Both the position numbers and the translations under genes were made by a program. From a virus, in IMG/VR virus record IMGVR_UViG_3300002054_000009: a stretch of 64,000 nt of DNA. One strand, 5' to 3'. Positions 35,772-57,644 of the stretch are shown piece after piece. Position 1 is the stretch's first letter. Each line of letters opens with the position of its first letter. Below the pieces are notes generated by a model. The model was given only the letters and a program-made list of their open reading frames with translations. It was not told where the DNA came from and ran no database searches.

Positions 35772-35863
35772 AAAGGTCTGAGAGAATCCAAAATTTTTTT
35801 AGAAATTTTTAGAGATGTCGGGAATAATGGTGGGGTATTGTTTTTAGAGAGTTAGAAGAGTCG

Positions 35864-35912
35864 TTTTAGAAAGAATGATTTTAGAAAGAATGATTTTAGA
35901 AAGAATGATTTT
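35864..35912. repeat. 15-bp tandem repeat TTTTAGAAAGAATGA x3
   Basis: Read directly. Confidence 0.9.
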
Positions 35913-36278
35913 CTTCAGATTGTGACATATCTCCCAGTGGTATCCCATCACAAAACAAAACATTCTTAAATTGTCTACCACATCACACCACGATGGCATC
36001 ACAAAAAATAATTCTAATACCTAGACACCATCACAAAGTTACTACAAACATTTCTCTATAGTGTGAACATCATTCCATATCATGAAGAACTACATCACAT
36101 GTTAGATATCATGTTACTGTGTCACATAAATGAATATCCAATTGTGTGATGGATGCACAATGTGAGGAATGTCTCATATGAACTGTGTCACAAAAAAGAA
36201 AGAACTATGTCTCTCTTTTGATTATTGTGGACTGTAGCACAAAAAGAAGATTCCATTCTTCTTTTGTTGATTTGTGAT

Positions 36279-36557
36279 TCAGTACTCATTCCAGAACATT
36301 GAGTAATCATCTTCCATTATTGGGTGATCCATCACAAAATCACCCATCTCTTCGCGCACATTTTCCATTTCTGAGGCTTCATCCACAATCTCGTTAATTG
36401 CCCCGTGATCTATCTCATCATAATTGTGTCTTGTGTGCTCATCCACATAACGATCAACACACCCATTCACAAAACTCGATTCTGTGAAACCATTCACAAA
36501 ATCAAGGACAATTTCACGAACAGCAATAACAAGAGCATCTTGTGATACAGTAGACAT
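36279..36557 (-). CDS. acidic hypothetical cassette protein
   Basis: Own TATAAT promoter near 36595. Confidence 0.65.
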   Translation of the reverse strand: MSTVSQDALVIAVREIVLDFVNGFTESSFVNGCVDRYVDEHTRHNYDEIDHGAINEIVDEASEMENVREEMGDFVMDHPIMEDDYSMFWNEY

Positions 36558-36940
36558 ATTTGAATTCCTGTTTAGGATGAGAGGATGTGTCCATTATACC
36601 GCGCTGCCCGAGAATATTCGTGCTCCCATCACAAATTTGTTCGCAATCGAAAATTATTTTTTGTGATCGAAGTCCGATGATATATTTGTCCCGTTTTTGT
36701 GATCGCGTTCGCAGAACGTACATCTGGGATAAATGTCTCACCGTGCATAGTAGACATTGAGACATTTCTTCCAATAATGCGTTTTGTGTGGTTCATCACA
36801 AAAACGAGACAAATCTCTCAAGGGACTTGCATCACAAAAAATAATTCTGAAAGCTGTGCTTTTTTGTGCGCTATGCACGGACAGGGCCGATAGCTCGGCC
36901 TATAATGGTCACATCTTCTACGCAATCAGGTACACGCAAC

Positions 36941-37189
36941 ATGGCTAACACTGAATCACTGTTCAAAAATCTTGAAGTTCTCACCATGCGTGAGCGCGGT
37001 GACTATAGAGAGTGGTCACTGGATAGTGACGAGGCCACCGTCATAAAGACGGTAAAAGGCGAATACTTTTATGATAGTCTTTTTCATGTATCGGAAGCCC
37101 TGTTGGGTGATGTCCGTAGGACAGTGCCATATGAATTCTTCAGAAGTGAGGATTGTAGTAAACAAAAGTTTGAGATCTTCACAATGTGA
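36941..37189 (+). CDS. hypothetical cassette protein
   Basis: TATAAT 36901; terminator 37198. Confidence 0.65.
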   Translation: MANTESLFKNLEVLTMRERGDYREWSLDSDEATVIKTVKGEYFYDSLFHVSEALLGDVRRTVPYEFFRSEDCSKQKFEIFTM

Positions 37190-37197
37190 TCTAATTC

Positions 37198-37223
37198 AAA
37201 AAAGGGGCTTCGGCCCCTTTTTT
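37198..37223 (+). terminator. intrinsic terminator GGGGC-TTCG-GCCCC-T7
   Basis: Same hairpin at 41304-41325 and 46131-46155. Confidence 0.9.
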
Positions 37224-37686
37224 GTGATCTATTTTTATTTTTGTAGGTTTGAGATATTTCTCACATGTCAAATCAATCACAAAAAATAATGTGAACTTCT
37301 CGCATCGTTTTTTCTTTGTATGCCTTCGAGATAGTTACCCTATACACTGACATCACTCGCACCTATACGGCTCGGTATCGACGCTCAGAGCATCAGGAAA
37401 CGATAGTTTGAACCAACGGCTGACAGTAATCTATAGCTAACAGACCAAAGGATCAACCCACAAGATATTGTGATGGAGTAGACATTACAACATTTCTCAC
37501 ATTGTGATGTAAGTTTGTTGAGACATTTCTCTCAATACCACGTTCTGCGAACGCGATCACAAAAAAGGGACAAATACCTCATCGGACTTCGATCACAAAA
37601 AAATAATTCCAGAACCGATCCTTTTTTGTGACCCAAGCACGGGACATAACCGATCAATCGACCTACAATGGCACCACACCAACGCA

Positions 37687-38154
37687 ATGAGACACACGAC
37701 TATGACCGCATCTGCTACCCAGTTCGCTATTGTTGCCGTTTTTCAGGTTCGTGAGAACTACGCCGCCCATGATGGTTTTACGGGCGAGTATTACTGGAAG
37801 TGTAAGGGAGGCGAGGAGGCCGTGTCCGATCTTATGTCGCTCGATACCCTTATGGGTATGGATCAAGCCGCTAAGGAAGCGCTGGTCGCTTCTATTGCGC
37901 CCGAGTCTAACGACTATTATGAGCACACGCTCATAGATTGGGAAATTGTTTCCCTTGACTCCGAATCTGCGAACAGGGTCGCAGATTTTATTGCCGAATC
38001 TCCGGGCGAGGATATTGATTTCCTGCGGTACAAGTTTGGTAACGATTTCCTATTTGATTGGGCCGTGAAGCAGCGCCCAGAAATAGCAAAAAATACTTCC
38101 GACCCTTTCGGATATGCGAGGCGGTTGGGGATTGAGCTACCGACCGCTGCGTAG
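37687..38154 (+). CDS. hypothetical cassette protein
   Basis: TACAAT 37664; higher GC than flanks. Confidence 0.7.
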   Translation: MRHTTMTASATQFAIVAVFQVRENYAAHDGFTGEYYWKCKGGEEAVSDLMSLDTLMGMDQAAKEALVASIAPESNDYYEHTLIDWEIVSLDSESANRVADFIAESPGEDIDFLRYKFGNDFLFDWAVKQRPEIAKNTSDPFGYARRLGIELPTAA

Positions 38155-38163
38155 TTCACAAAA

Positions 38164-38195
38164 CAGAAAAGGGAACCAAAAGGTTCCCTTTTCTG
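38164..38195 (+). terminator. intrinsic terminator
   Basis: CAGAAAAGGGAACC-AAAA-GGTTCCCTTTTCTG. Confidence 0.85.
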
Positions 38196-38436
38196 TGATA
38201 TAATTTTATTTTTATAGGTCTGAGACATTTTACACAAAAAACTTACATCACAAAATAAAAATGTGAAGTTATCGCATCATTTTTTCTCTGTGTACTCTCA
38301 TCCCAGTTATCCTATACGATGATACTACTGACACTTATACGGTCGCATACAGAGCCAATGGCTGGCACTGTTGGGTATTTATTGGCATATATACTGAAGT
38401 ACCACCTCTCAATTCATTCGGTTGATGACGAGGAAT

Positions 38437-38478
38437 TGTGAGGTAGATCACCGAAAAATACTTTCGTACCCCCTATAA
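38437..38478 (+). promoter_or_regulatory. class II CRP-like promoter
   Basis: TGTGA-GGTAGA-TCACC centred about -40.5 relative to TATAAT 38473. Confidence 0.6.
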
Positions 38479-55837: not shown

Positions 55838-56021
55838 TTTTATTGTTATCGTGTTGTTGAAAGAAAGGTTATAATATCAAATAGAAAAAATAAAATCTAA
55901 AACTAACTCACAAATTTAATCAGGATCATCTAACTCATAATAAATATCTCAGTTCGTTTCAGTGGAATAATTATAAGATAATTCAACAATAAAAGGTGTG
56001 ATCTATTTCAAAAAAGGAAGC

Positions 56022-56357
56022 CTACACTCCCCGATTTCTTGGTGATATTTTTCTCGACGGAGCCTTCTCATACATCGAAATTTTTTGTATGATCTGCTTC
56101 ATATCAAGCAAAATAACTTCACCACAAAGGGTGTAGACGGTGACGAGCGAATCAATACGTGGAAATTTTGTATCATTAACGTCATCATTAAGTTTAGACT
56201 CAAAATCAATAGTGATTGATTCTACAATTCTGGTCATATCACTATCATCGGTGTATAGTACAACCTGATCTAATACCGGAGAATAAGAGAGGTAAGTCTC
56301 TTCCGGTCGTTCTCGTTTCATATCTGAAAGAAAGTAATCGAAATCTTCAAAGTTCAT
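56022..56357 (-). CDS. hypothetical protein
   Basis: AGGA RBS. Confidence 0.6.
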   Translation of the reverse strand: MNFEDFDYFLSDMKRERPEETYLSYSPVLDQVVLYTDDSDMTRIVESITIDFESKLNDDVNDTKFPRIDSLVTVYTLCGEVILLDMKQIIQKISMYEKAPSRKISPRNRGV

Positions 56358-56528
56358 AATTATATTCCTGTGTATTTTATTGAATAATTATAAAAGAAGT
56401 TCGATAAAATTGTTGTTATCTACTTCTTACTTTCGTTTCTTTACTGTTGGTCGTGATTTTCTTGATGTTTTAATAGATGCCGATTTAGTCTTGGATGATT
56501 TATTGGTTTTGGCTTTCATTGTTAGTGG

Positions 56529-56801
56529 TTAAGCTGAGTGAAAATTATGGAACTGTTGTTCCGCGATGTTATCATTCCTTTGATCCATAAAATCTAACAC
56601 AAAATTATAGAGTCCTTCATTAGAAATATCAGTCAATCCCAAATCTGTGACGTGTTCCTCTCCCATCAATTCGTGGCCATTCATGTATATAGACAGAAAC
56701 CCGTTGATATCTAGACGTGCTTCCAACTGTTCGTGATAGTAAGTATCAGCGACAATCACCCTGATTGTTCCGGGAATTGAATTGTCCTCAACAAATAACA
56801 T
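56529..56801 (-). CDS. acidic hypothetical protein
   Basis: 90 aa. Confidence 0.6.
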   Translation of the reverse strand: MLFVEDNSIPGTIRVIVADTYYHEQLEARLDINGFLSIYMNGHELMGEEHVTDLGLTDISNEGLYNFVLDFMDQRNDNIAEQQFHNFHSA

Positions 56802-56836
56802 TGTGCTTCATCCGTGGATCAAGTAGACTATATTAT

Positions 56837-57043
56837 ATGCGAATGTTAAGTGAAAAAAATGAGCAACGGCTCAAAGGTTATGAAAGAGAATTAAAAACTC
56901 TTGAAGAGTATGTGTATGAGCATGAAATGGTTGGCGCTTCTCAACATGTCTTACAAAGAAGAATAGAAATTTGTGAGGCTACTATCAGAGAAATCTATAG
57001 TAAAGATGTATATTCAATCGTTCATAGATTAAAGAACATTTAA
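56837..57043 (+). CDS. helical RLK-tail protein (family B)
   Basis: Tail IVHRLKNI. Confidence 0.7.
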   Translation: MRMLSEKNEQRLKGYERELKTLEEYVYEHEMVGASQHVLQRRIEICEATIREIYSKDVYSIVHRLKNI

Positions 57044-57044
57044 T

Positions 57045-57176
57045 ATGACTAAGCAAACCCCATCGGCGTCAGCATCTGATGTGATGAATAACATCAAACG
57101 GCGGTATGGAGTACAGAAGAAAACCAAAAGACAGCGACTGATAGAAGATCTGAAGTCTCGAAAATATAGAAAGTAA
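57045..57176 (+). CDS. 43-aa RLK-variant tail protein (not in track)
   Basis: MTKQTPSASASD...RLIEDLKSRKYRK*. Confidence 0.55.
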   Translation: MTKQTPSASASDVMNNIKRRYGVQKKTKRQRLIEDLKSRKYRK

Positions 57177-57331
57177 ATTTGTCGAACTGGTCACAACAAA
57201 AAAGAAAAATGTTTGGTATAATGGTGTCATATCTGAAAGGCATAGCAAGCTAGCGCCGCCCCTGCGCGATGAAAAATTTTCGCGAATTTTGTGATGAAGT
57301 TGAAATGAGACATTTATCACAGTGTACATCT

Positions 57332-57380
57332 ATCACACAAAATTCGGAATCACATCACACAAAATTCGGAATCACATCAC
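57332..57380. repeat. 22-bp tandem duplication ATCACACAAAATTCGGAATCAC
   Basis: Read directly. Confidence 0.85.
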
Positions 57381-57571
57381 TCTGTGTCCTATATCTCATA
57401 ATAGATATTATCTAATATGTGGACAATCTCTCATCATAAGAAAAATAGTTGTTTTGTGATGGTTGCACATTGTGAGAAATAGCACAGTTCAACTACATCA
57501 CAAAAATGGAAAGATTGTTATTATGGGATGGTATCCACAGTTATACTAATTTACATAACTGACTAATGGTT

Positions 57572-57618
57572 TACACTTTTACACTTTTACACTTTTACAC
57601 TTTTACACTTTTACACTT
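57572..57618. repeat. TACACTTT x6 microsatellite (second copy)
   Basis: Read directly. Confidence 0.9.
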
Positions 57619-57644
57619 AAGAATTTGATCTCATCAAAGAGAAT

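Follow-up and report, generated by a model that had tools for sequence, protein, structure and literature searches.

Reused promoter and terminator spacers mark a probable PeSL-type hyperplastic accessory-gene region in a large uncultured T4-related phage

The stretch of DNA analysed here (the window, 64 kb in full) encodes thymidylate synthase, a primase, PhoH, DHFR and both subunits of topoisomerase II, whose genes are separated by one for a homing endonuclease. Its best topoisomerase II match among phages on record is only 34% identical, and the contigs that match the window are 177 and 281 kb long. The window also carries an accessory island with a core of ~20 kb (Table 1), and satellite arrays and promoters lie beyond the core at 57287-57505 and 59722-60270. 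An earlier, sequence-only reading had placed about 35 short genes here in 22 kb (35780-57640); the cluster of small genes and the island are real, but we count ~43 genes, the core spans 35900..55912, and motif arrays run to about 60.3 kb. The two arms do converge at ~48.5-49 kb, as that reading had it, the plus arm ending at ~48.56 kb and the minus arm starting at 48630 with a two-way terminator between them, except that three minus-strand genes lie inside the plus arm. Gene 40467-40886 is a Phage_T4_Y00F homologue, and gene 44247-45050 encodes 267 residues. Since only ~28 of the ~43 genes have their own promoter and ~17 a terminator, several must form operons of two to three genes, and the island as a whole is predicted to comprise ~28 short transcription units. 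A unit of terminator, TCACA/TGTGA block, TATAAT box and leader had been ascribed to most of the genes; its promoter pattern is indeed enriched, but gene by gene the counts are those just given.

What does a spacer consist of? In its full form it begins with a strong intrinsic terminator, continues with four TGTGA-type half-sites arrayed over 48 bp, and ends with a promoter, which we call P1, followed by a predicted CA start, an ACCAAC-type leader, a Shine-Dalgarno sequence and the gene. The folding energies of twelve terminator hairpins range from -14.5 to -27.5 kcal/mol (z -3.5 to -8.2), and a U run comes after every one. The verbatim repeats reported earlier are all present: GGGGCTTCGGCCCC three times (37204, 41306 and 46136), GGGAGCCGAAAGGCTCCC twice (42476 and 43280), and an exact 31-nt repeat at 50923 and 53267.

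P1 has a perfect -10 box, no -35 hexamer and, assuming a start 7 nt past the -10 box, a TGTGA box centred at -40.5/-41.5, whose promoter-proximal half is TCCAC rather than TCACA. The pattern TTGTKR-N27-32-TATAAT has 22 matches where 1.17 are expected, a number that none of 100 shuffles reached; 19 of the 22 fall within 36.5-54.2 kb and two near 60 kb. The spacing is N30-32 in 29 instances in the window. Promoters of the classic -35/-10 kind show no enrichment (41 against 39.3 expected and 54 against 59.8 expected). Similarly, TTTTGTGA/TCACAAAA has 68 matches (4.2 expected) and TGWGA-N6-TCWCA has 23 (0.3 expected), all of the latter within 36-62 kb. The inner two half-sites of the array form TGnGA-N6-TCACA. 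The scoring promoter-proximal sites centre at -40.5/-41.5, and those of the array group around -84 to -87 and -102 to -115. In the Class II CRP-dependent promoters of Gammaproteobacteria, for example galP1, a 16-bp site of the TGTGA-N6-TCACA type at -41.5 replaces the -35 hexamer; P1 shares the 16-bp site at -41.5, the good -10 box adjoining it and the further sites upstream, and differs in its TCCAC half-site. To our knowledge, three abutting 16-bp sites per spacer is not a known CRP arrangement. P1 promoters probably depend on an activator, which may be a CRP-family protein of the host or a factor of the phage itself, and they probably fire early.

Table 1. Features of the accessory island and its surroundings (L007, near-identical contig; B and C, related genotypes)
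Feature	Coordinates	Strand	Details
Accessory island core	35900..55912	.	~43 small unrelated ORFs, reused spacers; from motif density, spacer map, gene/promoter/terminator table
Plus-strand arm	36866..48560	+	~27 genes
Minus-strand genes in plus arm (3)	36279-36557, 40093-40287, 45278-45490	-	
Minus-strand arm	48630..54516	-	~15 genes
Six-gene block (45278-47411)	45056..47484	+	absent from B and C
Two-gene block (98 aa, 96 aa)	47793..48486	+	replaced by 59-aa gene in C
Operator array example, 54 nt	44080..44133	.	TTTTGTGAT-N10-TGnGA-N6-TCACA-N10-ATCACAAAA as counted in this copy
Aligned array copies (22), starts	37231, 38202, 39023, 39056, 41322, 42054, 42493, 42943, 43300, 44080, 45130, 45522, 46759, 49010, 49475, 50536, 51827, 54218, 57287, 57452, 59722, 60178		
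Terminator	37197..37224	+	GGGGC-TTCG-GCCCC core, again at 41306, 46136; -18.9 kcal/mol
Terminator	38163..38196	+	3' of 37687-38154; -25.1 kcal/mol
Terminator	42475..42494	+	GGGAGCC-GAAA-GGCTCCC; identical core at 43280
Terminator	44053..44078	+	3' of 43783-44049; hairpin folding
Terminator	45084..45107	+	3' of 267-aa gene; hairpin folding
Two-way terminator	48583..48607	.	arm convergence; GGAGAGC-AGAT-GCTCTCC, A run one side, T run other; -16.6 kcal/mol, z -4.95
Terminator	49532..49551	-	3' of 49558-49725; hairpin folding
Terminator	50592..50609	-	GGGGAGC-TTCG-GCTCCCC, 3' of 50622-50894; two more copies in L007
Long terminator	54272..54318	-	3' of 54328-54516; -27.5 kcal/mol
Two-way terminator	55321..55351	.	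between 54694-55296(+) and 55379-55837(-); hairpin folding
P1	36593..36633	-	TGTGA-N30-TATAAT; for 36279-36557
P1	37627..37669	+	TGTGA-N32-TACAAT; for 37687-38154
P1	38437..38479	+	for 38517-38960; box TGTGAGGTAGATCACC, palindrome 9/10, centre -41.5
P1	39176..39216	+	for 39241-39516
P1	40324..40365	-	for 40093-40287; back to back with next
P1	40394..40435	+	for 40467-40886
P1	40988..41030	+	for 41062-41256
P1	41415..41456	+	for 41488-41757 and 41808-42041
P1 upstream half, abrupt end	42139..42164	+	L007 165 nt longer: -10 box, leader, 5' end of 137-aa gene
P1	42573..42615	+	for 42649-42930
P1	43393..43434	+	for 43466-43786 and 43783-44049
P1	44173..44214	+	-10 box TATTAT; for 44247-45050; promoter and leader kept in B, C
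Orphan P1, no downstream gene	45209..45250	+	antisense into 45278-45490(-); within left ~85-nt direct repeat
P1	45603..45644	+	for 45669-46127 and 46180-46401
P1	46447..46488	+	-10 box TACAAT; for 46515-46760
P1	46839..46880	+	for 46915-47241 and 47241-47411
P1	47448..47489	+	for 47520-47789; within right ~85-nt direct repeat
P1	47792..47833	+	for 47863-48159 and 48193-48483
P1	49406..49448	-	for 49101-49373
P1	49994..50035	-	-10 box TATTAT; for 49775-49960
P1	50466..50508	-	for 50031-50435
P1	51757..51799	-	for 171-aa gene, intact in L007
P1	52153..52194	-	for 51790-52122
P1	54149..54190	-	for 53746-54120
P1	54550..54591	-	-10 box TATTAT; for 54328-54516
P1	55871..55912	-	-10 box TATTAT; for 55379-55837
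Second promoter type	50909-50953, 52793-52837, 53253-53297	-	small hairpin AAGGCA-AGGA-TGCCTT abutting TATAAT; two share 31 identical nt
(ACACTTTT)n tandem repeat	39553..39606	+	L007 then has 174-nt array and promoter; piece missing from window
L007 pieces missing from window	35912, 39606, 42164, 43091, 48553, 51386-51494, 51878		

Among the 41-42 cassette proteins tested there is no paralogue pair, while 56 pairs of spacers are similar at 70-98% DNA identity. The cassette genes were said to be more GC-rich than the spacers, and they are (41-41.5% against 34.5%); they also exceed the phage core genes (35.1%), and their GC3 is 38.6% against 26.7% in core genes (p about 1e-7). The cassette genes are compositionally foreign and the spacers match the composition of the phage.

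Two kinds of difference from related DNA must be kept apart. The window lacks seven pieces of 106-350 nt that are present in the near-identical contig L007. For example, the P1 truncation at 42164 recurs at 43065-43091, with a gap of 160-162 nt relative to L007, and the 171-aa gene of L007 is fused in the window into a chimeric 241-aa ORF (50960-51685). A second (ACACTTTT)n-type tandem lies at 57569-57620. Contigs of the sample that is the likely source disagree with the window at no fewer than five of the seven junctions, and they carry the L007 form at both truncated P1 sites; the missing pieces are therefore probably an assembly artefact of the window. The second kind of difference separates the window from genotypes B (L014 and L018) and C (L015-L017), known from short contigs of 1.5-5.4 kb and distant from it at 50-76% protein identity. 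In both, the 267-aa gene has an 89-aa gene directly after it. Similarity to the window breaks off at 45056 in B and at 45031 in C, and restarts at 47484, exactly at the -10 box of the P1 at 47448..47489. The six-gene block they lack is flanked by direct promoter repeats of ~85 nt (45170-45255 and 47405-47490) that are ~85% identical by eye. Genotype C also exchanges the two-gene block 47793-48486 for another gene, and run X1 has a joint, 47770->48498, that matches this swap. The breakpoints lie in spacers or at gene ends, and four or five of them carry the claim of recombination; no circle junction or read-level recombinant was seen in the runs, which are contigs from a single sample. Checked across relatives, cassette order and content are not fixed, and junctions map in the repeated spacers.

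Because the spacers are repeats of 50-180 nt at 70-100% identity, general recombination can act between them. Homologous recombination between the ~85-nt repeats explains the data without a dedicated capture enzyme, and we infer that it is the mechanism, circle intermediates included. A caution applies, in that selection on regulation alone could keep repeated spacers alike. The spacers might resemble one another from binding the same regulator and RNA polymerase, with genes gained and lost by illegitimate recombination and the repeats playing no special part. The positions conserved in the spacers coincide exactly with those where proteins are candidates to bind, namely the TGTGA half-sites, T tract, -10 box and start, and genotypes B and C retain the TGTGA-N31-TATAAT-CATACCAA design though their spacer sequences differ. 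However, the likeness extends well past the functional boxes, with unrelated genes downstream: the module at 41380-41461 is 95% identical to 45568-45649 (82 nt), the module holding the P1 at 43393-43434 is 86% identical to 46418-46502 (85 nt), another 85-nt spacer similarity reaches 97.6%, and L007 has an exact 88-nt promoter repeat ahead of two unrelated genes. Similarity of this reach argues for recent copying or conversion, not convergence. Moreover, an orphan duplicated promoter flanks a variable block, and we consider co-regulation as the sole cause unlikely.

Integron arrays, too, line up small unrelated genes that were apparently acquired, with imperfect palindromes between them, and the sequence-only reading had called the island an integron-like platform for recombination-driven capture and shuffling. 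Unrelated foreign genes in homologous spacers, and genotypes that differ by whole cassettes, uphold capture and shuffling; the integron-like label is not supported. For that label, the genome (at least 281 kb, of which the search covered 64 kb) would have to encode, in another part, a site-specific recombinase that inserts or excises cassettes at the 48-bp array, used as an attC-like site. Most cassettes do have an imperfect palindrome after them, in which inverted core sites form two nested pairs, and the left breakpoint against genotypes B and C, 44139, falls at the edge of an array. Against this, no IntI, attI or common Pc promoter was found here, and no integrase or recombinase family appears in window ORFs of at least 150 aa, in selected shorter ORFs or in the Pfam hits of L007 and L008, in keeping with the earlier statement that the window has no integrase. 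Promoters and terminators belong to the cassettes themselves, which occur on both strands, and the best-resolved event is bounded by ~85-nt promoter repeats, not arrays. Sites of the attC type keep their structure, and their sequence varies. The array is the opposite: its sequence is conserved only at the four half-sites, the intervening positions pair in fewer than half of the copies, and no measure of structure-preserving covariation exceeds shuffles (375-500 of 500 reach the value; 22 aligned copies). We do not read the island as an integron, and consider it very improbable that a recombinase from elsewhere in the genome acts on the array. Finally, it is very doubtful that the array represents a non-autonomous mobile element of small size (MITE/REP-like, and moved perhaps by an IS200/IS605-type enzyme) that colonised the spacers and brought regulatory signals. 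There are ~22 copies of a ~54-nt palindromic unit, its asymmetric centre is oriented by the + strand and not by gene direction (15 forward, 4 reverse), and a TnpB (OrfB_IS605) gene adjoins the island in genotype C, but target-site duplications and defined ends were not seen, the copies grade into each other and into promoter boxes, no hairpin covariation was found, and the window has no transposase.

Promoter-early stem-loops (PeSLs) have been published for the hyperplastic regions of T4-type phages, in RB49/phi1, T4/PST and KVP40/nt-1 (Arbiol et al. 2010, PMC2839356; Comeau et al. 2014, PMC4122927). The composite is a stem-loop terminator, promoter, Shine-Dalgarno sequence and start codon, with a model of block deletion, duplication and swap (PMC4122927). 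The island fits this description, with an unusual activator-type promoter: in both, the composite is repeated between small ORFan genes of a variable region, repeats sit next to the places where related phages differ by insertion, deletion or replacement, and orphan or degraded copies occur. Here, however, the TGTGA box stands in place of the -35 hexamer, the four-half-site array is added between terminator and promoter, the GC content of the cassette genes clearly exceeds that of the core genes, and the phage is much larger and distant from T4 (its topoisomerase II shares no more than 34% identity with that of any phage on record). The PmSLs of Vibrio phage nt-1 join stem-loops to MotA-box middle promoters (PMC4122927), and thus share a terminator with an activator-dependent promoter (here predicted) in which a -10 box plus an upstream box replaces the -35; the MotA box is TGCTT near -30, whereas here TGTGA-N6 is centred at -41.5.

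We propose that this large uncultured T4-related phage probably carries here a hyperplastic accessory-gene region of the PeSL type, whose content is turned over by homologous recombination. Its spacers would supply each captured gene with its own on and off signals, and the general recombination of the phage would delete, duplicate or swap blocks between the spacer repeats. What is new here is the set of non-paralogous genes amid similar spacers, the contrast in GC and GC3, the anatomy of the spacer, and the blocks by which the genotypes differ.

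What kind of region is the ~20-kb accessory-gene island of the window (35900-55912)? As judged from sequence, it has the features of the hyperplastic regions, rich in PeSLs (promoter-early stem-loops), that T4-type phages carry. In a composite of the window and L007, a near-identical 177-kb ENA contig, the accessory-gene core contains ~43 genes, ~28 of which have their own promoter and ~17 a terminator, and the 55 genes scored across this composite have 27 P1 or P2 promoters. Because there are only ~28 promoters and ~17 terminators for ~43 genes, 2-3-gene operons make up part of the island; the description of stand-alone gene cassettes given by an earlier sequence-only reading thus holds for most units, which carry their own promoter, but not for these operons. 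Twelve terminator hairpins have a UUCG or GAAA loop, a U tail and a folding energy between -14.5 and -27.5 kcal/mol, and ~17 terminators are followed 60-200 nt downstream by a promoter and a gene. The verbatim reuse of promoter and terminator parts reported in the same reading is borne out for every repeat that it named, as is its convergence of two arms at ~48.5-49 kb, where we find a two-way terminator.

The predominant promoter, P1, is built around a TGTGA box and has no -35 element. The pattern TTGTKR-N27-32-TATAAT has 22 matches, a number that no shuffle attains, against 1.17 expected, and 19 of the 22 lie within 36.5-54.2 kb; consensus -35/-10 promoters, on the other hand, show no enrichment. 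The 29 P1 instances in the window follow a fixed order: the near-invariant TGTGA, then AAT and CC 5-9 positions on, a T tract, and a -10 box (always TATAAT, TACAAT or TATTAT) that sits 30-32 nt downstream of TGTGA and is followed by GGnnCnCA and an ACCAAC-type leader. Under the pattern TGT[GT][AG], the distal half-site is TGTGA in 28 of the 33 instances matched, and the proximal half is TCCAC-like rather than TCACA. If the start is assumed to lie 7 nt past the -10 box, the centre of the 16-bp box falls at -40.5 or -41.5; this is where CRP-type activators sit at class II promoters. Three copies were found of another, less frequent promoter, in which a small hairpin abuts TATAAT.

Half-sites of the TGTGA type recur upstream of the promoters. 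TTTTGTGA/TCACAAAA occurs 68 times against 4.2 expected, and TGWGA-N6-TCWCA 23 times against 0.3 expected, every one inside 36-62 kb. The spacers contain a ~54-nt unit, TTTTGTGAT-N10-TGnGA-N6-TCACA-N10-ATCACAAAA, of which 22 copies align without gaps. Overall pairing across the unit is 60.4%, symmetry is limited to its four half-sites, with intervening positions pairing in fewer than half of the copies, and all five covariation measures stay within the range of shuffles. Since the symmetry is found only at the half-sites and covariation does not exceed that of shuffles, we read the unit as an array of candidate protein-binding sites; a reading as an attC-like element or RNA hairpin is rejected on the pair counts. 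The inner TGnGA-N6-TCACA site has an asymmetric centre, (C/T)ATTTC, which points in the same + strand direction in 15 of 19 arrays (centres 36161-60197) and keeps that direction in three of four on the minus-strand arm; array-centre orientation tracks the genome strand, not gene direction. Two long gene-free spacers that have a module in common may be degraded cassettes or small-RNA genes, and an Rfam search returned nothing. At the left edge of the island, the 15-nt unit TTTTAGAAAGAATGA is present three times in the window (35866-35912) and twice in L007, where it is followed by 121 other nt.

Coordinates of island features and of neighbouring genes (window positions unless a contig is named)
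Feature	Coordinates	Description
Full-spacer example	43267-43465	Stop codon, GC-rich tetraloop hairpin, T run merging into TTTTGTGAT, ~54-nt unit, 20-30 nt, promoter
Two-way terminator	48583-48607	Meeting point of + arm (to ~48.56 kb) and - arm (from 48630)
Gene-free long spacers	37190-37400; 38155-38370	Common ~190-nt module: terminator, array, P1-like box without a good -10
Tandem repeats (ACACTTTT)n	39553-39606; 57569-57620	~6 copies each, 18 kb apart, same orientation; unit resembles ACACTTTT found just ahead of TGTGA in several promoters
Direct repeats of one promoter module	45170-45255; 47405-47490	~85 nt; an orphan promoter in the left copy is directed antisense into a - strand gene
Acb1 homologue (anti-CBASS)	7292-7816	Pfam E 9e-29; adjoins DHFR and ClpP-like protease genes
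Homing endonuclease	12663-14198	511 aa, between topoisomerase II subunit genes; DUF723 and nuclease domain; PHROG 'HNH endonuclease'
TnpB gene of genotype C	L015:495-1568	OrfB_IS605 / Cas12f-like; few genes upstream of the island copy of its contig

The genes and the spacers between them differ in origin to all appearances. All-against-all BLASTP of 42 cassette proteins gives no paralogue pair at E 1e-3, whereas the 34 spacers form 56 similar pairs, 70-98% identical across 46-178 nt. For example, unrelated genes are preceded by promoter modules that are 95% (82 nt), 86% (85 nt) and, in L007, 100% (88 nt) identical. Mean GC and GC3 are 41.3% and 38.6% in island genes but 35.1% and 26.7% in core genes (Mann-Whitney p ~1e-7), and GC is 33.3% in the flanking small-gene arrays and 34.5% in the spacers, so that the higher GC of cassette genes over spacers noted earlier is upheld. 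By composition and similarity, the cassette genes look acquired and the scaffold native. Only two cassette proteins contain a Pfam family (Phage_T4_Y00F and DUF6900), the 12 matches to PHROG families are all to families with no assigned function, and PADLOC matched no cassette protein. The 267-aa protein encoded at 44247-45050 has a lipoprotein-like N-terminus, and its C-terminal third (~100 aa) shares 55-62% identity with a domain found in cellular proteins, among them proteins of the diatom Seminavis and of Myxococcota and proteins that contain F5/8-type-C or malectin domains; a captured carbohydrate-binding module is the probable interpretation. Homologues of a 155-aa GC-rich cassette protein were too few for a donor to be named. 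We also note that the small flanking genes at 58439-59696 end alike (...ERLKKI, ...ELKNRTYE) and that the island proteins have no such 'RLK' tails.

Which known system does this arrangement resemble? Integrons are defined by an IntI tyrosine recombinase with attI and Pc, and by promoterless cassettes in one orientation; their attC sites are imperfect palindromes with conserved structure and variable sequence. Neither the window ORFs scanned nor the precomputed hits of L007 and of L008, a near-identical 281-kb JGI contig, include Phage_integrase or any other recombinase family, in agreement with the earlier statement that the window has no integrase. Unlike attC, the array pairs only at its half-sites and has no conserved structure, and unlike integron cassettes, most island units have their own promoter and are laid out in two arms with embedded opposite-strand genes. 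The integron comparison therefore fails on each defining feature tested, and the label "integron-like" is not supported. The likeness to PeSL regions is closer. In T4-type phages, composite terminator-promoter repeats adjoin indels, and recombination at these PeSLs, also by way of small circles, has been proposed to bring about deletions, insertions and exchanges (PMC2839356; PMC4122927). As in PeSLs, a stem-loop terminator in the island spacers immediately precedes a promoter, with a Shine-Dalgarno sequence and start codon further on; many similar copies are clustered among small variable ORFs; and indels and replacements between relatives occur at or beside the repeats. Two differences stand out. 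The PeSL early promoter is sigma-70-like, with -35 and -10 elements ~17 nt apart, where the island has the TGTGA box, and published PeSLs do not contain the extra four-half-site array. Among published elements, the MotA-box 'PmSL' of phage nt-1 comes nearest.

Short contigs of two further genotypes, B (L014, L018) and C (L015-L017), were recovered from metagenomes of algal cultures; L007 is in one of these metagenomes as well. Both encode homologues of two island proteins (50-76% identical) and promoters of the form TGTGA-N31-TATAAT-CATACCAA, as in the window, with other upstream repeats. In both, an 89-aa homologue directly follows the 267-aa homologue: similarity to the window stops at 45056 (B) or 45031 (C) and restarts at 47484, which is the -10 box. 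The six extra genes of the window are bounded by direct repeats of one promoter module, and these repeats, together with the orphan promoter, are as the PeSL model predicts. Likewise, genotype C has an unrelated 59-aa gene in place of 47793-48486, with a matching joint in run X1, and the upstream breakpoint at 44139 is the end of an array. In this small sample, the breakpoints against B and C (44139, 45031/45056, 47484, 47792 and 48487) are thus at or next to repeats. The upstream neighbours are wholly different, with TnpB and small - strand genes in C and 17 more cassettes in the window. Cassette recombination in the island is suggested by this handful of breakpoints in short contigs from fairly distant relatives. 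The recombination-driven shuffling proposed earlier accordingly finds support in the cassette differences and spacer breakpoints among relatives in a PeSL-like form, but not in an integron-like one.

Differences among the near-identical contigs call for another explanation. Apart from a few indel blocks, the window, L007 and L008 are free of substitutions. In the window, 106-350-nt pieces of L007 are missing at 35912, 39606, 42164, 43091, 48553, 51386-51494 and 51878, and L008 lacks overlapping pieces whose end points differ from those of the window. At 42164 and 43091 a -10 box and the 5' end of a gene are lost each time, at 39606 a whole array and promoter, and at 48553 most of a 73-aa gene. 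Real excision is rejected as an explanation of these losses, since they have no repeats at their ends, the L008 end points differ, and contigs from the likely source sample have the full form. The latter contradict at least five window junctions: they contain the 168 nt at 48553, continue with 146-204 unmatched letters at 35913, 39607, 48554 and 51879, and read an intact promoter at 43092. The window junctions may represent a rare variant, but the likelier cause is gaps closed or stripped during assembly, and we treat these junctions as assembly artefacts and prefer L007 as the reference. With pieces missing exactly at these repeats, there are two truncated ORFs (42165-42467 and 43091-43266) and one ORF, of 241 aa at 50960-51685, that is a two-gene chimera, so that these gene calls are not trustworthy. 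Five apparent recombinant joints (43092->43428, 50608->52837, 50609->51387, 50609->51879 and 51386->51822) are read as repeat matches because their 21-38-nt sides fall in repeated terminators or promoters. A 12-nt in-frame repeat unit, CTCATCATCATC (50972-50983), which belongs to an acidic Asp/Glu tail, is shared by the window and L008 but missing from L007, and looks like a natural copy-number difference.

The window is part of the genome of a large uncultured T4-related phage. Among its gene products are thymidylate synthase, a gp61-type primase, both topoisomerase II subunits, PhoH, DHFR, an Acb1 homologue and a ClpP-like protease. Among the phage records searched, none exceeds 34% identity to the topoisomerase, and 350-490-kb jumbo phages come nearest; queries with the island and with 1-20 kb found no near-identical DNA in the phage collection. 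The exact 267-aa protein is present on L007 and L008, and window DNA was found, stored as contigs, in three DNA runs, all from one algae-metagenome sample. Scans of IMG/VR with the array and promoter patterns gave no matches, three loci from a motif scan of JGI metagenome contigs were dismissed as chance matches lacking motif enrichment, and the arrays are absent from topoisomerase relatives at ~50% identity (L001-L006). Rfam gave no family and ARAGORN no tRNA, the NCBIfam model GlyGly-CTERM was not matched by the protein at 2-274, and the sugar transferase was uninformative as to host, its 40-50% matches being spread over many phyla. One candidate, P0004, was rejected as a phage and sits on a eukaryotic (algal) contig.

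Finally, what might bind the TGTGA boxes? The window contains no CRP-family gene, and a host CRP-family protein would be the simplest candidate binder; we infer both the timing of expression and the identity of the regulator. It is conceivable, though we consider it rather doubtful, that a single dimeric regulator which recognises TGTGA, most simply host cAMP-CRP, controls the whole 20-kb island. Such a regulator would activate ~27 promoters from the class II position and occupy the triple-site array in almost every spacer, and the protein-bound arrays may also mark the places of cassette exchange. Expression of the captured genes would then depend on the metabolic state of the host; alternatively, with ~100 sites on each genome copy, infection would titrate the regulator away.

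The PeSL idea, that regulatory cassettes double as recombination handles, is here extended from the T-even, RB49-type and KVP40-type phages in which PeSLs were previously found to a distant, much larger uncultured lineage. In this lineage, the island presents a clear contrast between apparently foreign genes and native spacers, and it offers a defined, testable class of putatively activator-dependent promoters that would replace the usual early promoter throughout the accessory region.
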